Source: Anabaena azotica FACHB-119
GTDB taxonomy: Bacteria; Cyanobacteriota; Cyanobacteriia; Cyanobacteriales; Nostocaceae
DNA length: 19,281 nucleotides
Assembly (NCBI RefSeq): GCF_014697625.1
Contig: NZ_JACJSG010000078.1
Span: 1 to 19,281, forward strand
Reading direction: 5' to 3'
In this document: one piece after another, positions 5,190 to 16,285 of the stretch
Layout: every line of letters starts with the position of its first letter
How positions within the stretch are numbered: position 1 is the first letter of the stretch
Translations under genes and position numbers: made by a program
The notes under the pieces: generated by a model
What the model saw: only the letters and a program-made list of their open reading frames with translations
Database searches by the model: none
Told to the model about the DNA's origin: nothing

Positions 5190-6110
5190 ATGAACCAACC
5201 ACCTTCTAAACGTAAAAAAGCTACCTCCGGTACATTCAGCAATTCAATACCATCGGCTAATTCTCTTAACGATACGGTTGATCAAGAGAATCCTGCTAAC
5301 GCAACCATTACAGTAAGCGCTGTTGAAGTACCTGAACTAACCGAGCAAGAACAAAGCGATCGCCTGCACTTGGAACGCATCGTGGAACGGTCGTTTTTTG
5401 AAGCGGGGAAGGCGCTCATGGAACTACGCGATCGCCGTCTCTATCGTTCAACGCACCGGACATTTGAGCAATATTGTAAGGACAGGTTTGGTTTAAGTCG
5501 TGACACTGCCTACCTCAAGCTTTCGGCTACTGTTGTCTATGACAACATTGAGAAATTTTTGCCGACCATTGGTCGGCAAATTCCTATGCCGACCAACGAG
5601 CGACAATTGCGTGATTTGGCGAAAGCAGATTTTGAACCCCACGTCCAGGCGGATGTCTGGCAGCGAGCAGTAGAGCAGGCAAATGGGAAAGTTCCTAGTG
5701 GGCGTATCGTCAAGAGTATTGTCGAGCAACTTAAAGATAAACCTTTATTTTTCGCTCGTGATTTCTGCCAAATAGGCGATGTGTTCACCATCTGCAAGCT
5801 AGAAGGGACTGAGCGCAAATATAATAACTGTTGGGCGATTGCCGTCGCACTCAACGAGTTTACAGTAGAAGTTGATGTACATGATGCCACCCTTACTGTG
5901 AAACCTGAAAATCTCAACAAAATCGATTCACCCGAAGCACACCGTCAGCTGCCACAAATCAAAAAGCGAATTTTGAGATTGCGTGAGTGTGGAAACTTAG
6001 ATCGGTGCGCTTACACTGTGCTGGAATCCTTGGGTAAGCAGATTTACTTAACCGAAGTTGAAGACGGTTTGTTGCAGTGGTTGGAAAACCATTATGGAGT
6101 TATCCGTTGA
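5190..6110 (+). CDS. putative DNA-binding protein with a ParB/KorB-like HTH segment
   Basis: ATG 5190 is preceded by GAGGAGGTGG (5176-5185), a better start than the TTG at 5142. The segment EAGKALMELRDRRLYRSTHRTFEQYCKDRFGLSRDTAYLKLSATVV resembles the RLYR-type HTH seen in ParB/KorB-like plasmid and phage proteins (from memory). Confidence 0.65.
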   Translation: MNQPPSKRKKATSGTFSNSIPSANSLNDTVDQENPANATITVSAVEVPELTEQEQSDRLHLERIVERSFFEAGKALMELRDRRLYRSTHRTFEQYCKDRFGLSRDTAYLKLSATVVYDNIEKFLPTIGRQIPMPTNERQLRDLAKADFEPHVQADVWQRAVEQANGKVPSGRIVKSIVEQLKDKPLFFARDFCQIGDVFTICKLEGTERKYNNCWAIAVALNEFTVEVDVHDATLTVKPENLNKIDSPEAHRQLPQIKKRILRLRECGNLDRCAYTVLESLGKQIYLTEVEDGLLQWLENHYGVIR

Positions 6111-6652: not shown

Positions 6653-8019
6653 TTAAGCGGTTTGTAATTGTTTACGTAATTCATGCCGGGGCTTAGTCAT
6701 TAAGGGGTAAACCTTGGGGCGGCGTTTACGGACTCGTGGCTCAGTTCTAGCTGGGCGATCGCTCACAGGTTTGTGAACAATAACTTTGAGTAAACTACGA
6801 TAAAGTTTCTGGCGTTTTTTAGAGTGAGCGTCCTCGAATTTGGGAATAAAATTTAGTAAATGATGGCGAGTACCTTGTAAAGATAAGCGTAAGGGAGGAG
6901 TATTATAAGTATTCCCTGCCTCGAACATTAAGCTACGAAGTAAATTGTAAGCGAGTAAATAAACATGAATTTCCTTACGTACCATTGCTGGGGTTTTACA
7001 TCGTAAAACATCCATTCCTAAAGTAGTTTTTAAATGTCTTAAATCTAGTTCAACATCCCAACGTTTATAATAAAGTCCAACTATTTCTAGGGTAGGATAA
7101 ATAGTTTTATCCAATAAAGTAGTGATGAGACTGACCCGCTCTGAGCGAAAACCAGGAATCACAACATAGTAGTAAATTTCACGTACAGTTATGGAAGGAG
7201 GTAAAGCTAAAAATTCGTCCTTGCTTAATCCTTGTGGGCATCTTTTAGGTTTGTACCAAGTAACTAACTTGTCACAATCACCAACTATTTTACCTTTTCG
7301 CATGGTTGTTGTGCGAGATTGATGCTTACGAAAAACTGCATCACAGCCGAGTTGAGTAATAGAGAACATATCAGCGTAAGCACAAAAGGCTCTGTCCCCT
7401 AAAAGTACATCATTAGGTTTTAGAAAACTGTACAACTTCCTGGCTAATTTAATATCATGAGTATTCAGAACGTCGATACACAAAGCAATTGCGGCTCCAG
7501 TTACTAAACTAAATATCACCCCAATTTTGGCTATTGGAAAGCCACATCCCTCTTTTGGCTACTAGCTTGGGGATATTCTTTTTGATTTTCAACAGTATCA
7601 GGCATAGAAACAGTCGAGCCATCAATTACTTTGACATTTCGACCACACCAGAACTTTTCATGAGTTACTTTCTCTTCTAAATTTCGTGCCGAGTCATTAA
7701 AAAGTTTTGCCAGTAATTTCTCTGGTAGTCTTGACCGTGCTTGGCAGTATGCACTTGTATCTGTTGACGGAACTTCTACCTCTTTTTCTGCCAAATGTGC
7801 AATTATTTTACTCACAGCATTATGACAAGTTTTATCACTGTCTAGAACCTGAGTTAAAAACGCCCATAAAGTCACCACTGGGTCAAATAACCGCTTTTTA
7901 TATTTGATTTTTAGCTCAGATATTGCTTGGTTAATTGCTGATTCTGGCAGCAATTCTTTAAAAGGTAGCCCCAGACCCTGGCTAAATTTATCCTTGAGAA
8001 TTTGTACTCTTAATGTCAC
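6653..8019 (-). pseudogene. IS4-family DDE transposase split into two frames (162 aa + 288 aa)
   Basis: The N-terminal ORF carries DGSTVSMPDTVENQKEYPQ. The C-terminal ORF carries LLGDRAF and the YKRWDVELDLRHLK (Y-R-E-K) signature. The second frame is open from 7558 and reads PKEGCGFPIAKIGVIFSL, so the break is a single -1 shift at ccaaaagagg (~7550-7560). Confidence 0.75.
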
Positions 8020-8423: not shown

Positions 8424-10907
8424 CTAATTATTACTAAACTTCACTATCCAGTTGTTCATCATCCCGGTCATATTTACTTGCTGTTCTAGGTCAGTTACTA
8501 TTACATATCTGGGCGGATTTTTGGTTATCTGGACAGCCTCCCGACTTTTCACTGGAATTTCTTCCTCTCCGAACATCGGTGTCATCTCGAACTGCCCTCC
8601 GTCGTGGTCATCTGCTTCAGTTATGTTTCTCACTCTGTCACTTATGTCACGTGCTGTATTATAGCTGAATCTCTCGGTCAGCTTGTCCTCCTCCATTTGT
8701 GTTGATGCTTGATAGTCGGGAGCTGACTGATTGAAACTTATATCCCATTGGTCTCTCCATGCGGTCTGTTGCTCATTTAGCCTTTCCACGGTCGATAGTG
8801 TAAACAAATATGGCTCCAAGCTTCGTGCTTCTTGAATTGTTATCTTGAGGTCTTCCGCCCAGCTTTTTGCTGTCACAAGATGAGCTATTGCATCAACTAG
8901 TTTCGTTTCTTTTTCCCTCGCCATGTCCAACTCCTTTTTGATCAAATCTGTCGATAGTGGAGCCAAGACTGATGGATCTTTCATCTTTGTTATTTCCCCG
9001 GCAACGTCCAATAATTCCAGGGCAATTTCTCCCGCTGCTACTCTGAGCAGCCTTGCCAGTTCTTTATCTATGATCTCTTGATTCTCGGATAATAGCTTTT
9101 CTGCTATTTGTTTTGGTTCGCCAACATCTGGAAAAGTTTTGACCAGTAGGCTGATAATATCCTCTTTGCTTACACTACTACTTGGCGACCACTGCACACC
9201 AATTAGCTGGCGCTCATTAAAGTTTACTCTCATAGATGGACCCCCGACTTGCTGTACTTGTGTTACAGGTACAACCGCATCTTGAATCTCAACTCCAAAT
9301 GGTTGCCCTAATGTTGGTGACATGGTGCCATGCTGTCGTGTTGTCGGTGCCATCGTACCAGTTGTCCAAGCTGTCATATGCCATTTCGTTGGTATCCTTC
9401 TTGGTATGGTAATAGCTGTGTTCAGATATATCGCGTCGTATTTCGGTTTATTGGAGATAACTGGTCGTTTCACCAAATCGGCTATTGTTAGTTGATAATC
9501 AGACGGGTATGTCAGGTCAACTTTGACACATACCTCAGAACCGCTCCGTGCCGTCTCTTTGATCTGATTTTCTGTAGCTGAGTAAACTGGTGTATTAAAT
9601 TGAGAAACTTGAGGTGCCAGGTTATAATATTGAAAGCTATTTGTAGTACCCGCAATTAGTTGATCGCCAATTAAGTGACCAGCATCATAAAACTTTTGTA
9701 AATCAACTCCTTGGAGCAGGTATTGCTCTGCTCGTGCCATAGCCGTCACAACTGATAATTCAGTCGCCTTCTCCCGTTCACCCTCCCTGATGGAGCGAGC
9801 ATCTACTAAGGCTGTAATAGATTTTGGACGCTCATAATTACCTAATCGTCTTGCAGTGGTTCCAGGCAGAAGTTGTTCTTTTAGAGGAACATTCGTGGCC
9901 TTTCTTATTGCTTCTGCTGGAGTGGGTAACGGATCGGATTGAATATCAACAAATTTTCGCTGTATGGTTGACAGATTCTGCGCTTGTGATGCAGTTTTGG
10001 CTACCTTCACCTGTGGCTGATGCGATCGCTCTACTGTCTCCCCTTTCTGCTGCACAACATGAGTCAACTCATGAGCCAACAACTCCTGCCCCCCTCGACT
10101 CCCCGGCTGATACGCCCCCTGCCGAAAGAACACATCCTGCCCAGTGGTAAATGCCTTCGCCTGTATCGACTGATTCAACTGGTCAGCCTGAGAATCCGTA
10201 TGCACGCGCACGCCACTAAAGTCAGCCCCAAACGCCTGCTCCATCGGTTCTCTAATGCTGTCGGCTAAGGGCTGTCCACCACCTCTAGCCCGTTGTATCC
10301 CCGCTTCGACATCTGGGGATGCTGCCATGCCACCGTCAGCCACACGCTGCACTATCGGCTTCATCTGTAATTCTTCTTCTTCGGACGACTGGTGCTGAAT
10401 ATTATCTACTGGCTTGGTTTGCAATTCCTCTTCTTCAGTTACAGTCTCTCGTTGAACTGGCTGATTTGGTGGCTGATGAATCCGTTGCACTACTTGAGTT
10501 GCGGTTTCGTCTGCTTGTTGCTCATACTTATCCCCAGGTTGCCCGATGGTGAGCTTGGCTTGTATTGGGGGTGATGCGTTGGGTCTACTAAACGCAATTC
10601 TATTAATGTTATGCCCATACGTAGCAGCATTTTCTAACCGCGTCTGCAATAATCCGTCCATCTTGGCTTGCAGCAGGGTTAAACGTTCTTGTCCCTGTGG
10701 CGTAATCGTGCCAAACTTCGCCTGTAGCTCCAATCCTGTAGCTTCCATCTTTTGTTCGGCAAAGGCGGCATCTTCCTTTTGCTGCTGTGTGCTGATGCTT
10801 TGTGTTTGGATACCAAACGGTCTAGACGCAAACTGTGATGATGTTTGGGATATTTGAGAATTACTGAAGGTGGGGCTTGCTTGTTTTTGAGTTTTTTGTG
10901 GAGGCAT
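8424..10907 (-). CDS. DUF4157 (zincin-like HExxH) polymorphic-toxin-type protein with an internal Endonuclease_NS_2-like His-Me nuclease domain and an unknown C-terminal extension
   Basis: 827-aa ORF. DUF4157 hallmarks are present: LTIGQPGDKYEQQADETATQVVQRI, two EEEELQxKP repeats, GGGQPLADSIREPMEQAFGADFSGVRVHTDSQA...AFTTGQDVFFRQGAYQP...LLAHELTHVVQQ. HELTH is at 10059-10073. The central segment FYDAGHLIGDQL...YYNLAPQVSQFN...ATENQIKE...VCVKVDLTYP matches the (D/R)GHLI...NL.PQ...N...E pattern (GH at 9675-9680). Residues ~530-827 carry nothing I recognise. Confidence 0.85.
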   Translation of the reverse strand: MPPQKTQKQASPTFSNSQISQTSSQFASRPFGIQTQSISTQQQKEDAAFAEQKMEATGLELQAKFGTITPQGQERLTLLQAKMDGLLQTRLENAATYGHNINRIAFSRPNASPPIQAKLTIGQPGDKYEQQADETATQVVQRIHQPPNQPVQRETVTEEEELQTKPVDNIQHQSSEEEELQMKPIVQRVADGGMAASPDVEAGIQRARGGGQPLADSIREPMEQAFGADFSGVRVHTDSQADQLNQSIQAKAFTTGQDVFFRQGAYQPGSRGGQELLAHELTHVVQQKGETVERSHQPQVKVAKTASQAQNLSTIQRKFVDIQSDPLPTPAEAIRKATNVPLKEQLLPGTTARRLGNYERPKSITALVDARSIREGEREKATELSVVTAMARAEQYLLQGVDLQKFYDAGHLIGDQLIAGTTNSFQYYNLAPQVSQFNTPVYSATENQIKETARSGSEVCVKVDLTYPSDYQLTIADLVKRPVISNKPKYDAIYLNTAITIPRRIPTKWHMTAWTTGTMAPTTRQHGTMSPTLGQPFGVEIQDAVVPVTQVQQVGGPSMRVNFNERQLIGVQWSPSSSVSKEDIISLLVKTFPDVGEPKQIAEKLLSENQEIIDKELARLLRVAAGEIALELLDVAGEITKMKDPSVLAPLSTDLIKKELDMAREKETKLVDAIAHLVTAKSWAEDLKITIQEARSLEPYLFTLSTVERLNEQQTAWRDQWDISFNQSAPDYQASTQMEEDKLTERFSYNTARDISDRVRNITEADDHDGGQFEMTPMFGEEEIPVKSREAVQITKNPPRYVIVTDLEQQVNMTGMMNNWIVKFSNN

Positions 10908-11442: not shown

Positions 11443-11929
11443 GGAAAAACGGTTGCCGGAAGACAAAGGACTGTGCCAGATTTAATCAAATTGCCCAGTT
11501 TTAAGCATGAGGTAGAATACTTACTTAGTCGAGCGGGTGCAACAATTGCATGAGCGAGATATAGCTTGGAACGAAATGGCAATTATCTACCGCTCGAAGT
11601 TCACGGGCAATCACATCTACCAGGATTTCCAGAAACTGAGAATACCTGTTGAATTAGTCAATGCCAACAATGACAGCCGCAACTATCACCCAGACGAACA
11701 AAGCATTAAACTCATAACCATGTTTTCATCCAAAGGGCTAGAGTTTCCAGTAGTGCTTATCCCCAGCATTGGCTTCATGCCCCATCAATACAATACACCC
11801 GAAGAGGAAGCGCGGCTGCTGTATGTGGGGATGACACGGGCAATTGATCAGCTAATTATGACCTGCGATCGCAAGAGTGGATTTACTGAGCGTTTGGAGG
11901 CGGTGTTGGGGAAGGTGGCAGTTAGATAA
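11443..11929 (+). pseudogene. 3' remnant of a UvrD/PcrA-type SF1 helicase
   Basis: ORF 11537-11929 carries the C-terminal helicase motifs (ITMFSSKGLEFPVVLIP, EEARLLYVGMTRAIDQLIMT) but is only 130 aa. Another frame upstream (11443-11538) reads GKTVAGRQRTVPDLIKLPSFKHEVEYLLSRAG. That plausibly continues the same protein across a frameshift near 11533-11538. No N-terminal ATPase domain is present. Confidence 0.65.
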
Positions 11930-12382: not shown

Positions 12383-12682
12383 GCTGATGTATACCAGTGA
12401 GGGCGAATTAGTCGGTGCAGAGATTTTTGGAGTTGCCTGGAAGCTGAACCGAGCTTATTGACTGTGCTGGAGTCAGTGAAGAGCGGCTGTTGCAATCACG
12501 CTCTTCGTTCTGGAGCCAAGGCGATGTCGATAAAGAGGCTTGCACTATCGCACCTTCAAAAATGCTGCATGGATTATGAGCCTAAAAATATTTAACTAAA
12601 GTTTTCTTCCATTAATTGCGTAGTTTAGAATAAAAACCATGTAGTAACAGTAAAATATGATGCTGAATTGCAGGGGTAGTAG

Positions 12683-13123
12683 ATGGAGCCATTAACTGCG
12701 GGTGCGATCGCTATTGGTACTATAGTTGCTACCAAAGCTTTAGAGAAAACAACAGAAAAGGGAACAGAATTTTTATTGGATAAAGCTGGGAAGTTTTTAG
12801 TGACCTTGAAAAAACACTCCCCCAATACTGTAGTTGCGATTGAGAAAGCACCCCAAGAACCACTCGATTACGGTAAAGCTGTACTGGAAGTAGAATCTGC
12901 GGCTAAGGACAATCCTGAACTGGCTCAAGCTGCACAGGAATTGGCAACAGCAGCACAAACTAATCCACCATCAAACTTGGCGGAAATTTTGAGGGAGATA
13001 AAAGCATCTATAGAAAAATCGCAACAATCATACCCAACAAGTTTTATTCAAAACATTGAAAAAGCGATTAATGCAGCGCAGACACAAACCATTGATCAAA
13101 GAGGAAGTACCTTTAATATTTGA
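12683..13123 (+). CDS. 146-aa all-helical N-terminal (effector- or adaptor-like) module of the NLR locus, ending at an in-frame TGA
   Basis: ATG 12683 follows AGGGGTAG. The N-terminal Gly/Ala-rich hydrophobic helix is LTAGAIAIGTIVATKALEK, and the rest is predicted helical by composition. The stop TGA at 13121-13123 is in the same frame as the downstream NB-ARC ORF. Confidence 0.7.
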   Translation: MEPLTAGAIAIGTIVATKALEKTTEKGTEFLLDKAGKFLVTLKKHSPNTVVAIEKAPQEPLDYGKAVLEVESAAKDNPELAQAAQELATAAQTNPPSNLAEILREIKASIEKSQQSYPTSFIQNIEKAINAAQTQTIDQRGSTFNI

Positions 13124-13237
13124 CTACAGTCGCCCGAACGGGAACGGGTAAAGTCAAATCCCCCACAAAATATTCCTCCCAGCAATACAAATGAATTTGT
13201 TGGAAGAGAAACAGAATTAAAACGCCTCCACCAAGAG

Positions 13238-16200
13238 TTGCAACGCAATGATTCGGTGATAATTGCTGCTGTAGAAGGGATGGGGGGAGTTGGGAAAACA
13301 GAATTGGCAATCCGTTATTCACTGCTACATTGGCAGTTGAGCAATTACCCTGGCGGTATTTGCTGGTTAAGAGCAAGAGAAGAAGAAATTGGTTCACAAA
13401 TAATACAATTTGCGATAACAGACTTGGGCTTGCAACCGCCAGAAGATTTGGAATTACAACAACAAGTACGTTGGTGCTGGCAACGTTGGCGGCAGGGTGA
13501 CACGCTAATAGTTCTTGATGATGTTACAAATTACAGTCACATCGAACCGTATTTACCACCTCAAGCATCCCAATTCAAAGTACTAATTACTACACGCCTC
13601 AAACTAGATTTAGCTAGTTCTCTGCTTTTGTCAGTTTTGTCAGAAAAAGACGCACTCTTGTTACTAGCTCAATTGATTGGTGAAGAAAAGCGAAATCAAG
13701 AATTAGGACAAGCTGAAGAACTTTGTCAGAGGTTAGGCTATTTGCCCTTAGCTTTACAATTAGTTGGCTGTTATGTCAAGAAACGCAAGTTAACTTTAGC
13801 CGAAATGCTGCGACGGTTAGAAGAAAAAGGGTTAGGTCATCCTTCCTTAATCGTGAAGGAAAATGACTCAACTTGGACTAGAAACGTCAAACTTGGAGTA
13901 GCGGCGGCTTTTGAATTGAGTTGGTTAGACTTAAGTGATGATGCTCAACAGTTGGGTTGTTTGCTGAGTTTATTTGCTAATGCTCCCATTCCTTGGTCGT
14001 TGGTGGTAGGTGCTACATCTGAGCAAGACCCTGAAGAATTAGAAGATGCCAGAGTTGAACTAGAAAATTTGCACTTACTACAGGGTGAAGAAAATTATCA
14101 ATTACATCAACTAATTCGTGAGTTTTTGAGAGGCAAGCAAAACAACTTAGTTACAGCATCCGAGCAGAAGTATAATTTCTGTCGAGCAATGGTAGAAGTG
14201 GCAAAGACTATTCCTGATTCACTAACTCAAAAGTTTATTAATTCACTGAAAGAAGCTATTCCACATTTGGCAGAGGTCGCGCAAAATTTGACTGATGCAG
14301 TTAATGATGAAGATTTAATTTTGGTTTTTAATAGTTTAGATAGATTTTATTCGGAACAGGGTTTGTATGCGCTTGCTCAACCCTGGTGTGAGCAATGTGT
14401 ATCAGTAATAGAATCCCGTTTAGGACAACAGCATCCTCATGTTGCCGTCAGTTACAATAATCTTGCGAGACTCTACTGTTCTCTAGGACGGTATACCGAA
14501 GCTGAACCACTCTTTGTCAAGGCACTGGAACTAAGGCAGAACCTATTAGGGGAGTCACATCCTCATGTCGCCGCCAGTTATAACAACCTAGCAGGACTCT
14601 ACTGTTCTTTAGGACGGTATACCGAAGCTGAACTACTCTTTGTCAAGGCACTAGAACTAAGGCAAAGCCTGCTGGGAGAATTGCATCCTGATGTCGCCGC
14701 CAGTTACAACAATCTAGCCGAACTTTATCGCTCTCAAGGAAGGTATACGGAAGCTGAACCACTTTTTGTCAAGGCACTGGAAGTAGAACAAAGGTTGATA
14801 GGAAAATCACATCCTCATGTCGCCACCAATTACAACAACTTAGCTAATCTCTACTATTCTCAAGGACGGTACATGGAGTCCGAATCTTTGTACGTCATGG
14901 CATTAGAATTACGACAAAGCCTGCTGGGAGAGTCACATCCTGATGTCGCCGCCAGTTACAACAACTTAGCTAATCTCTACTATTCTCAAGGACGATATAC
15001 AGAAGCTGAACCACTGTTTGTCAAAGCCTTAGAACTAAGACAACGCTTGTTCGGAAAGTCACATCCTCATGTCGCCATTAATTACAACACCCTAGCGAAC
15101 CTTTATCGTTCCCAAGGACGATACTCGGAGGCTAAAACTTTGTACATCAAGGCATTGGAACTAAGGCAAAGCCTGCTGGGAGAATTGCATCCTCATGTTG
15201 CCACCAGTTATAACAGCCTTGGACAACTCTATTGTTCTCAAGGACGATACACAGAAGCTGAACCACTTACGGTCAAGGCACTGGAACTAAGGCAGAACCT
15301 ATTGGGGGAGTTACATCCTGATGTTGCCACCAGTTATAACGACCTTGGACAACTCTATTGTTCTCAAGGACGATACACAGAAGCTGAACCACTTACGGTC
15401 AAGGCACTGGAACTAAGGCAGAACCTATTAGGGAAGTTACATCCTGATGTTGCCACCAGTTATGACAACCTTGCAGCACTATACTATCGGCAAGGACGAT
15501 ACACAGAAGCTGAACCACTTACGGTCAAGGCACTGGAACTAAGGCAAAACCTATTGGGGGAATCGCATCCTCATGTTGCCACCAGTTATAACAGCCTTGG
15601 ACAACTCTATAGTTCTCAAGGACGGTATACAGAAGCTGAACCACTCTTTGTCAAGGCACTGGAACTAAGGCAAAACCTATTGGGGGAGTTACATCCTGAT
15701 GTTGCCACCAGTTATAACGGCCTTGCAGCACTATACTATTGGCAAGGACGGTACGCAGAAGCTGAACCACTCTTTGTCAAGGCACTGGAACTAAGGCAAA
15801 GCCTATTGGGGGAATTACATCCTGATGTTGCCACCAGTTATGACAACCTTGCAGGACTATACTATTCTCAAGGACGGTATACAGAAGCTGAACCACTTAC
15901 GGTCAAGGCGTTGGAACTAAGGCAGAACCTACTGGGGGAGTTGCACCCTGATATCGCTACCAGTTATAACAACCTTGCAGGACTATACTATTCTCAAGGA
16001 CGGTATACGGAAGCTGAACTACTTTTAATCAAGGCACTGGAACTAAGGCAAAGCCTGCTGGGAGAATTGCATCCTGATGTCGCAGCCATTTATAACGATC
16101 TTGCAGGATTATACTATTCTCAAGGACGGTATACGGAAGCTGAACCTTTGTTTCACCAAGCATTAAAAATTTATGAGCAAAAGTTAGGTGAGGGTCATCC

Positions 16201-16285
16201 AAAAACAATAATGCTTAGAAAAAATTATGCAGATAGTTTACGTAATTATGTATTTTTTTTAAGGAATAAACGAAGTAACTGTTAG
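13238..16285 (+). CDS. NB-ARC (STAND NTPase) - TPR repeat protein (bacterial NLR-like); true N-terminus uncertain
   Basis: NB-ARC motifs: Walker A GMGGVGKT (13277-13300), Walker B LIVLDDV, KVLITTR, GYLPLALQLVG, and the MHD-like LHQLIREF. About 15 TPR units of 42 aa follow. The frame is open back to 13124 and encodes NEFVGRETELKRLHQEL before the only candidate start, TTG at 13238. There is no in-frame ATG or GTG in 13124-13237. Confidence 0.85.
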   Translation: MQRNDSVIIAAVEGMGGVGKTELAIRYSLLHWQLSNYPGGICWLRAREEEIGSQIIQFAITDLGLQPPEDLELQQQVRWCWQRWRQGDTLIVLDDVTNYSHIEPYLPPQASQFKVLITTRLKLDLASSLLLSVLSEKDALLLLAQLIGEEKRNQELGQAEELCQRLGYLPLALQLVGCYVKKRKLTLAEMLRRLEEKGLGHPSLIVKENDSTWTRNVKLGVAAAFELSWLDLSDDAQQLGCLLSLFANAPIPWSLVVGATSEQDPEELEDARVELENLHLLQGEENYQLHQLIREFLRGKQNNLVTASEQKYNFCRAMVEVAKTIPDSLTQKFINSLKEAIPHLAEVAQNLTDAVNDEDLILVFNSLDRFYSEQGLYALAQPWCEQCVSVIESRLGQQHPHVAVSYNNLARLYCSLGRYTEAEPLFVKALELRQNLLGESHPHVAASYNNLAGLYCSLGRYTEAELLFVKALELRQSLLGELHPDVAASYNNLAELYRSQGRYTEAEPLFVKALEVEQRLIGKSHPHVATNYNNLANLYYSQGRYMESESLYVMALELRQSLLGESHPDVAASYNNLANLYYSQGRYTEAEPLFVKALELRQRLFGKSHPHVAINYNTLANLYRSQGRYSEAKTLYIKALELRQSLLGELHPHVATSYNSLGQLYCSQGRYTEAEPLTVKALELRQNLLGELHPDVATSYNDLGQLYCSQGRYTEAEPLTVKALELRQNLLGKLHPDVATSYDNLAALYYRQGRYTEAEPLTVKALELRQNLLGESHPHVATSYNSLGQLYSSQGRYTEAEPLFVKALELRQNLLGELHPDVATSYNGLAALYYWQGRYAEAEPLFVKALELRQSLLGELHPDVATSYDNLAGLYYSQGRYTEAEPLTVKALELRQNLLGELHPDIATSYNNLAGLYYSQGRYTEAELLLIKALELRQSLLGELHPDVAAIYNDLAGLYYSQGRYTEAEPLFHQALKIYEQKLGEGHPKTIMLRKNYADSLRNYVFFLRNKRSNC
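14432..16195 (+). repeat. 14 tandem, near-identical 126-bp (42-aa TPR) coding repeats
   Basis: Unit consensus is HP(H/D)VA.SYN.LA.LY.SQGRYTEAEPL.VKALELRQ.LLGE. The period is exactly 126 nt starting at 14432. Adjacent units, for example 15188-15313 and 15314-15439, differ at only about 5 positions. Confidence 0.9.

Follow-up and report, generated by a model that had tools for sequence, protein, structure and literature searches.

Bell domains are helical domains of about 100 residues, and ten BASS amyloid motifs have been defined, each of them found both at the C-terminal end of a Bell protein and at the N-terminal end of the NLR encoded next to it (Dyrka et al. 2020, bioRxiv 10.1101/2020.01.06.895854). 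One Bell protein, Bab, is an amyloid-triggered effector of abortive infection (Ibarlosa et al. 2024, 10.1101/2024.11.07.622273). In E. coli Bab/Agp (10.1101/2024.11.07.622273), as in the Podospora pair HET-S/NWD2, the effector is small, helical and targeted to the membrane, has an N-terminal helix of the MEPIS type and is activated when a sensor with which it shares a motif of about 20 residues templates the amyloid fold. Those systems consist of two genes and two polypeptides. Here we analyse a locus of the cyanobacterium Anabaena azotica FACHB-119 on contig NZ_JACJSG010000078.1 (the window, that is, the whole stretch of 19,281 nucleotides analysed), in which an effector module of this kind and an NLR-like sensor occupy a single reading frame interrupted by one TGA. 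For this locus we propose one gene with two products: judging from comparative sequence data, programmed recoding of the UGA at 13121-13123 probably yields both a Bell-BASS protein and a rare Bell-BASS-NLR protein from one transcript. The conservation of the stop and a conserved hairpin on its 3' side are features that go beyond the preliminary description of this DNA.

Another arrangement known for such proteins is the 'all-in-one' fusion of a Bell or HeLo domain to an NLR, to which may be added antiphage NLRs with an N-terminal MEPIS motif (e.g. Avast2/Avs2, cited in Ibarlosa et al.). The read-through product of our locus would have the same order of effector, nucleotide-binding oligomerisation domain and repeats, but the all-in-one proteins lack the amyloid tail and the stop, and so provide no free effector pool. 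A different kind of precedent comes from translation itself. Programmed stop-codon read-through is a textbook viral strategy and is documented in eukaryotes. The Qbeta coat/A1 UGA and the gag-pol UAG of murine leukaemia virus (MuLV) are leaky stops that set the ratio of a short to an extended product with a shared N-terminus. The MuLV pseudoknot lies about 8 nt downstream of the UAG, and the structure described here starts 8 nt past the stop; eukaryotic read-through genes show UGA-CUA(G) contexts, and here the UGA is followed by C, often as CUA or CUG. In contrast to the viral cases, the present one is a family of bacterial chromosomal and plasmid genes with a hairpin of only 5 bp. In the literature searched, subscription journals lying mostly outside the search, neither read-through nor stop codons nor recoding is mentioned for Bell/BASS/NLR systems, and nothing relevant came up for cyanobacteria. 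The components (Bell, BASS5, NLR and the principle of read-through) are known, and it is the architecture and the RNA element that appear to be new.

Effector module and sensor in one reading frame

The first open reading frame (ORF) of the locus begins with ATG 12683 on the forward strand, comprises 146 codons (12683-13120) and is closed by the TGA at 13121-13123. After this TGA the same frame is open for another 1053 codons, up to the stop at 16283-16285, where the full-length product would end. The fusion ORF therefore has 146 + 1 + 1053 = 1200 sense positions, or 1201 codons with the final stop, and the peptide across the junction is ...QRGSTFNI*LQSPERERVKSNPPQNIPPSNTNEFVGRETELKRLHQELQRNDSVIIAAVEGMGGVGKT (the asterisk being the stop). 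Our reading of the ORFs confirmed the coordinates and frames of the preliminary description, which had noted the shared frame, the separation by the TGA only and the fusion of 1201 codons. It had also placed the helix that precedes the P-loop between the TGA and the first candidate start, and the profile searches agree: the FVGRE helix and NB-ARC NTPase span 13196-13810, the Pfam NB-ARC match (E 2.4e-16, post-TGA residues 28-229) starts at nt 13205, and the NCBIfam FxSxx_TPR model at post-TGA residue 19. The first in-frame ATG, GTG or TTG on the 3' side of the TGA is TTG 13238-13240 (codon 39), inside the NB-ARC profile, and the next is the GTG of codon 45; no Shine-Dalgarno-like sequence was found upstream of either. 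As previously stated, 13124-13237 contains neither an in-frame ATG or GTG nor a Shine-Dalgarno sequence, and the 24-codon linker that opens this region (13124-13195, LQSPERERVKSNPPQNIPPSNTNE) has no start codon in our scan. No terminator-like or promoter-like site was found on the + strand between the two ORFs. Further downstream follow the Walker A motif GMGGVGKT (13277-13300) and a TPR sensor array (14432-16146) with 13.6 copies of a 126-nt (42-residue) unit according to Tandem Repeats Finder, matched by Pfam TPR_12 (E 1e-231) and TPR_10 in 15 stretches each. NB-ARC, Walker A and repeats together characterise the sensor as an NLR-like STAND NTPase. The contig encodes the protein MBD2505297.1.

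What is the module in front of the TGA? We found 440 homologues, nearly all of 144-147 residues, in heterocystous and other filamentous cyanobacteria, and a profile search of 1.84 billion representatives gave 347 matches, mostly of 60-170 residues. Scans of the 146 residues with Pfam, NCBIfam and PADLOC returned noise and no matching model. Conservation of the Bell fold has been reported as very low, little being common to Bell domains except the N-terminal 'MEPIS' motif, which lies in a pore-lining helix that contains Gly (Ibarlosa et al., 10.1101/2024.11.07.622273). The window protein begins with MEPLTAGAIAIGTIVATKALEK (also given as MEPLTAGAIAIGT…), that is, with MEPLT and a Gly-bearing hydrophobic helix, a correspondence to the MEPIS-type motif that was judged by eye against the published description and not by the score of a hidden Markov model (HMM). 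In alignment A1, residues M1, E2, L4, A8, I9 and A10 are invariant or nearly so. The MEPLT motif and the Gly/Ala-rich helix 1 (residues 1-21, 12683-12745) form the putative pore-lining element. Residues 1-103 are 70-78% identical to those of loci L043-L073, whose tail/NLR pairs are entered as bass_05 in Table S2 of Dyrka et al. Because paralogues this close match published bass_05 pairs, we identify the module as a Bell cell-death domain with a BASS5-type tail, on the strength of homology and a motif described in text, not of a curated HMM or a structure. The earlier guess of a Bell- or HeLo-like domain is thereby borne out.

The tail itself (13037-13120), rich in N, Q, T and I and ending in …FIQNIEKAINAAQTQTIDQRGSTFNI (also NIEKAINAAQTQTID…), resembles the 'all_07' type of bass_05, given as TIEKIVNFSQRDIN / KIVNYAQGDIN in Dyrka Table S2, and shows the N/Q/G/V/I-rich composition that BASS effectors have in their C-terminal 25 or so residues. 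In Microcystis, the all_07 type joins TIEKIVNFSQRDIN on a Bell protein to KIVNYAQGDIN on a separate NLR (Dyrka et al., 10.1101/2020.01.06.895854). The AlphaFold2 model of the module is all-helical, as expected beforehand, with seven helices (pLDDT 77.5, pTM 0.69), the first at residues 3-21 and the last nine residues disordered. Comparison of this model with the Protein Data Bank by Foldseek yielded nothing significant (best E 0.65; BAX E 2.5), and a sequence-profile search of the same database returned only a spurious WD40 word match.

The classical two-gene paralogues serve as an internal control. With the cyanobacterial Bell-BASS5/NLR pairs (10.1101/2020.01.06.895854) our locus shares the Bell domain at the identity given above, the class of tail motif (KLADKIG…GTGNI and TIEKIVNFSQRDIN types), NB-ARC/TPR or NACHT sensors, the linker before FVGRE and collinear, closely linked genes. 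The differences concern the junction. In the classical paralogues an ordinary stop, usually TAA, is followed by a gap of 24-389 nt and by the ATG of the NLR in frame 0, 1 or 2. Their NLRs open with their own copy of the motif and continue with the linker TPTKSIPYRGSVHFVGRETEL; their tails (…KLADKIGQVVMPGGTGNIENMSF) and the downstream NLR N-termini (MPEDSGKFAEKIGAFAAPGAQVNIGTQIIEGQ…) are bass_05 pairs of Table S2. Loci of the TGA class have the same linker and NTPase, but here the stop is always TGA, the gap is zero, the frame is always 0, the sensor has neither a motif of its own nor a conserved start, and a covarying hairpin is present. The segment of the classical paralogues that is equivalent to the window's linker (…TPTKSIPYRGSV…) lies within their translated NLR. 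After the window TGA (LQSPERERVKSNPP…FVGRE) we found no BASS motif and no start codon such as a separate NLR would carry; the sensor would therefore possess an amyloid motif only in the read-through product.

Lack of a usable start is not peculiar to the window. In 11 of 41 NTPase partners, no in-frame ATG, GTG or TTG lies 12 or more codons ahead of Walker A; three of the loci (L003, L004, L038) lack such codons altogether. Where candidate internal starts exist, their positions are not conserved, and a Shine-Dalgarno-like sequence was seen at only three loci. One locus, L119 (2861-3400), is informative about the relationship between the two designs. It is a classical pair, its NLR having an ATG and a motif (MTDENWQGINLKGGNPTIKDNVI), after which come a sense codon (AAC where others have TGA) and a relic of the hairpin-linker (FISSERERVKSNPP). 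Since the motif directly precedes the linker, the classical NLR motif sits exactly where read-through would place the motif of the TGA class. L119 may represent an intermediate step in the evolution of one architecture into the other.

The conserved TGA and the hairpin behind it

Conservation of the stop was assessed in two samples. The genome sample consists of 80 related loci, in each of which the frame was read through the module stop, and the metagenome sample comes from a scan by the downstream nucleotide motif alone, the TGA not being part of the pattern, which added 45 further unique junctions. In 47 of the 80 genome loci, the module ends with TGA, and at least 100 and up to more than 1200 further codons are open in the same frame. 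Of the loci in which the frame closes, 23 have TAA as the stop, three TAG and five TGA, three of the last five being decayed copies of the TGA class (L013, L035, L048). TAA and TAG together account for 26 of these 31 loci, and TGA is left in two of the paralogues that lack the element. In 44 of the 45 metagenome junctions a TGA stands exactly 10 nt upstream of the start of the pattern. Taken together, all 91 junctions that have the element plus a stop, mostly from Nostocales, have TGA (47/47 from genomes and 44/44 from metagenomes), never TAA or TAG, and the arrangement recurs far more often than chance would allow. The flanking codons are free to vary around the constant TGA, with eight different codons at -1 and 11 at +1. 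The +4 base is C in 38/47 genome and 39/45 metagenome junctions (77/92), as it is in the window, where a C directly after the stop had already been pointed out; U never follows the TGA, and the +1 codon is mainly CUG or CUA. Complete chromosomes and plasmids are represented among the carriers (AP018222.1, CP019637.1, CP183817.1 and PCC 7120). The PCC 7120 junction (BAB74487.1) reads …GSSFNF UGA CUACAGUC GUCUG GCAGGGAA CAGAC AAAG; this protein is absent from the Dyrka tables.

The codons that replace TGA are also of interest. TGG (Trp) occurs in two independent Dolichospermum assemblies (P0267 and L036) that represent one lineage, and the P0267 variant, one of five candidates from a protein search with the junction peptide, is intact through the P-loop. 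These natural fusions show only that the fusion ORF is viable. Together with the AAC (Asn) of L119 they are the sense codons found at this position, Cys not being among them; otherwise, the TGA is retained in about 90 loci.

Several loci depart from the general picture. L048 and L110 read TGA CUG UAG, with a second stop one codon past the first, and look decayed, as do L013 and L035, in which later in-frame stops fall within the NTPase and the hairpin is intact. L082 (4014, 9658) and L127 (5196, 8123) each carry two Bell-TGA-hairpin-sensor systems in tandem on one contig, with differing tails, and look like paralogue arrays. In L033 (Dapis sp., 5439-5981), an in-frame TGA-CUG leads into an open partner of 180 codons with transmembrane and TPR regions but without a match to the covariance model described below; it is the sole locus that has the in-frame arrangement without the hairpin. 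In L108 (1620-1646, +) the ORF upstream of the TGA-hairpin measures 301 residues from its first Met and has no MEP start; the cassette may occasionally be preceded by a different module, or this ORF may really begin at a more downstream codon.

The second conserved feature is the RNA hairpin. In the window, the TGA is followed by a spacer of 8 nt (CUACAGUC, 13124-13131, with the +4 base C), a length that is invariant in A2, an alignment of 45 junctions. Then come the predicted hairpin at 13132-13149, with arms GCCCG (13132-13136) and CGGGU (13145-13149) enclosing the loop AACGGGAA (13137-13144), and the 3' flank AAAGUCAAAUCCC (13150-13162), whose alignment columns are nearly invariant and which is a candidate strand of an outer stem or pseudoknot. 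The near-invariant block of A2 can be written as TGA-[CG]U[AG]-NAG-UC-GYCYG-(8 nt, …GGGAA)-CGGRY-AAAGUUAA. Unguided RNAalifold predicted the same 5-bp hairpin, starting 8 nt 3' of the stop and pairing 13132-13136 with 13145-13149 in the window. In A2, 98.2% of the cells are paired in this register, a share that falls to 9-41% once the partner is displaced by 1-3 columns. Covariation is most evident at pair 22-38, which is UA in 23 sequences of A2, CG in 18 and UG in three. In the metagenome set, although the search pattern permitted all four combinations, the same pair is CG in 23, UA in 20 and UG in two, and CA does not occur. The base opposite G21, left unconstrained by that pattern, is C in 34 junctions and U in 11, never a purine. 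Pairing is also preserved in L062, where G-C has become C-G, and in the PCC 7120 copy, which has U-A at pair 24-36. The distribution of the states of pair 22-38 over trees built from either flank requires at least 9-12 switches, a rough figure given recombination among the paralogues.

The hairpin codons have a pN/pS (ratio of nonsynonymous to synonymous polymorphism) of 1.3, and diversity is low at each of the three positions of these codons. One additional base in the L018 loop shifts the 3' arm into another reading frame and the sequence of the arm is unchanged; a further 17 nt inserted a few codons on restore the frame before the conserved QAPP…, making this a compensated frameshift. Both the pN/pS of the hairpin codons and the L018 arm read in another frame indicate that the constraint acts on nucleotides and not on the peptide. 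A covariance model of the junction gave 51 matches in 678 kb, each at a module junction, and no match in about 29 classical or stand-alone loci even at E ≤ 1; an Rfam scan of 12400-13500 gave no real match. The loop sequence GGGAA is nearly invariant. Two larger structures are compatible with the alignment and unproven: a pseudoknot between loop GGGA and a downstream UCCC (90% paired, hardly any variation, one compensatory change) and an outer stem UGACU/AGUUA that would pair the UGA itself (83% paired, no covariation). The likewise nearly invariant loop sequence GGGAAC (13140-13145 in the window) is also complementary to GUUCCC, a sequence of the 16S rRNA 3' domain close to position 1380 in E. 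coli, and this could hint at an mRNA-rRNA contact.

Proposed read-through and competing explanations

The features described above are those expected of recoding: a single conserved stop identity, a downstream ORF that is in frame and depends on the upstream start, and a conserved 3' context at a fixed distance. In the mechanism that we propose, termination at the UGA would give abundant free Bell-BASS, the executioner. A minority of ribosomes would decode the UGA, most likely by near-cognate tRNA-Trp, favoured by the weak UGA-C context and by the hairpin 8 nt downstream, at the mRNA entry channel. A structure that begins 8 nt past the A-site codon lies where the mRNA enters the ribosome, like known recoding signals. 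UGA leakage in bacteria usually proceeds through near-cognate tRNA-Trp, and insertion of Trp is consistent with the natural variants, which have TGG. Ribosomes that decode the UGA would continue into NB-ARC-TPR and produce a Bell-BASS-NLR of 1200 residues, the rate of read-through fixing a low ratio of sensor to effector. With the same codons used for both products, the motif of the sensor would automatically be identical to that of the effector. By analogy with Bab/Agp and HET-S/NWD2, an encounter of the TPR array with its trigger might lead to NB-ARC oligomerisation, clustering of the motifs and nucleation of the amyloid fold, which could then template the abundant free Bell-BASS, whose N-terminal helix 1 would attack the membrane. 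Read-through would in this way replace the two-gene amyloid relay. The rate may also be tunable: stop-codon read-through in Anabaena rises under translational stress with the trn tRNA operon derepressed (PMC10272220), and infection or stress could raise the dose of the sensor.

Leaky read-through was one of three readings offered in the preliminary description, and it is the one we favour, given the invariant TGA, the covarying hairpin, the zero frame offset, the startless sensors, the compensated frameshift in L018 and the TGG variant. Also in its favour are the restriction of covariance-model matches to these junctions, the constraint on nucleotides, the position of the motif in classical NLRs, the variety of partners behind the cassette and the lack of terminator and promoter signals between the ORFs. 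Some considerations nevertheless speak against it. The evidence for read-through is all comparative; we infer read-through itself, the inserted amino acid, stimulation by the hairpin and the amyloid relay. To our knowledge, structure-stimulated read-through has not been established for any bacterial chromosomal gene. The hairpin is small, with 5 bp and a consensus energy of about -7 kcal/mol, and both common descent and recombination between paralogues inflate the covariation counts. Some internal NUG or ATG that could give a truncated sensor is present in about three quarters of the NTPase loci, among them the window (TTG 13238, GTG codon 45). The linker after the hairpin is weakly constrained (pN/pS 0.72), and dN/dS, the corresponding ratio of substitution rates, is by itself no proof of translation; for this we rely on the missing start codons, the frame statistics and the compensated frameshift. 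Finally, Foldseek matched the module significantly to no solved pore-forming domain.

Could the two ORFs simply be two proteins, with termination always occurring at the TGA and the sensor made from an internal or non-canonical start, for instance by reinitiation at CUG/GUG or at TTG 13238? The hairpin would then serve coupling, mRNA stability or processing. The +1 codon is indeed CUG or GUG in 24/47 and 22/45 junctions, about 30 of the 41 NTPase loci have some in-frame NUG or ATG before Walker A, and cyanobacteria often initiate without a strong Shine-Dalgarno sequence. However, 14/47 and 19/45 junctions have CUA at +1, a codon that does not serve as a start, and the scarcity and scatter of usable starts noted above, with 11 of the 41 loci having none, run counter to a dedicated initiation site. 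A separately initiated sensor would moreover be devoid of the amyloid motif that every classical homologue carries, and neither the identity of the TGA nor the constant zero frame offset would be explained. We therefore consider internal initiation unlikely. The related idea of a split two-component system fits the paralogues, in which it represents an ancestral or parallel design, but misfits the window, where the sensor has neither a start nor an amyloid motif of its own. A further view takes the junction mainly for a recombination hotspot or cassette boundary at the DNA level, the TGA just ending the effector gene and many sensors being non-functional remnants. It can account for the fact that the same junction of about 45 nt joins some 15 tails to at least eight partner architectures, for the scattering of pair states on both flank trees, for the decayed copies (L013, L035, L048) and for the IS4 element and gene fragments flanking the window locus. 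What it leaves unexplained are the base-pair covariation, the invariant TGA with its 8-nt spacing and zero frame offset, the compensated frameshift, and the long sensor ORFs with intact Walker A. As a replacement for recoding, recombination seems rather improbable, but the two may well operate side by side.

An in-frame UGA with a small hairpin of conserved loop at a fixed short distance is also the formal layout of a bacterial selenocysteine insertion sequence (SECIS). This likeness, along with the nearly invariant GGGAA loop, raises the question of a dedicated UGA decoder, either selenocysteine (Sec) with a SECIS-like hairpin or some SelB-like factor or suppressor tRNA recognising GGGAA. Against it, the sense variants are Trp and Asn rather than Cys, the site is a flexible linker and not a redox centre, and the Sec trait has been reported as not detected in Cyanobacteria. 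No tRNA gene was found in the window or in 50 related loci, hence no linked suppressor tRNA. Such a decoder is very improbable in our estimation. The stop might, lastly, be an accident of this strain, due to a recent nonsense mutation, an error in sequencing or the decay of the gene into a pseudogene. Pseudogenes are most commonly betrayed by just such a lone in-frame stop, and the contig is a draft (19,281 bp), but the same TGA stands in about 90 loci, complete chromosomes and plasmids included, and the length of 146 residues is common to hundreds of homologues. Because the TGA is conserved on this scale, the stop is not a lesion, and this explanation, negligible in our assessment, is refuted.

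If UGA read-through is indeed what these genes use, filamentous cyanobacteria might possess a dedicated, structured UGA-recoding signal, composed of UGA-CUN, an 8-nt spacer, a hairpin or possible pseudoknot and the GGGAA loop. For a bacterial cellular gene family, it could be the first read-through element that is both conserved and dependent on RNA structure, and it would make a single 'Gag/Gag-Pol-like' gene out of a two-gene amyloid-signalling immune pair, with the rate of read-through setting the ratio of sensor to executioner; we advance this wider claim tentatively, regarding its chances as slightly short of even. We know of essentially no conserved structure-associated read-through in bacterial cellular genes. 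Amyloid immune signalling poses a design problem, namely that the motifs must stay matched and that the suicidal sensor must be scarce, and our results suggest that the use of the same codons together with a read-through ratio would solve both. In this family, one signal is available in about 90 natural variants, compensatory mutants included, and the copy in the genetically tractable model Nostoc/Anabaena PCC 7120 makes the hypothesis directly testable. There are consequences for annotation as well. Sensors of this kind are now called N-terminally truncated genes or given arbitrary internal starts, and screens for motif pairs, like the one that defined BASS1-10, are blind to the TGA class.

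Partners and genomic neighbourhood

The Bell-tail-TGA-hairpin cassette is not tied to one type of sensor. Its partners include NB-ARC-TPR, a second NB-ARC subtype, NACHT-HEAT-NCC-H, NACHT/nSTAND3, CHAT-TPR, CHASE2 and FGE-sulfatase, with the transmembrane-TPR protein of L033 (in-frame TGA, no hairpin) as a further one, and some 15 different tails stand in front of the junction element. The helical part also occurs in true fusions that have neither tail nor stop: in P0167, P0210 and P0214 it is joined to a P-loop GTPase-like region, and in P0142 to HEAT repeats. The TPR units of the window sensor are near-identical, with 82% matches over 13.6 x 126 nt. Sensor orthologues in PCC 7120-like strains (L130-L133) measure 751, 798, 882 and 924 residues, the number of repeats varying among close strains.

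Three other features of the window lie upstream of the locus. Adjoining it on the reverse strand (8424-10907), a protein of 827 residues combines an eCIS_core domain (E 6e-35) with a non-specific DNA/RNA endonuclease domain; it resembles the toxins or cargo proteins that belong to contractile injection or polymorphic-toxin systems. An IS4-family transposase (6653-8019, -) is distributed over two ORFs in differing frames, one with Nterm_IS4 (7531-8019) and the other with the DDE domain (6653-7519), and is either a frameshifted dead copy or a case of programmed frameshifting. On the forward strand, an ORF of 130 residues (11537-11929) matches only the C-terminal part of UvrD-like helicases and is a gene remnant. 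The presence of this remnant and of the insertion sequence suggests a variable, island-like region.

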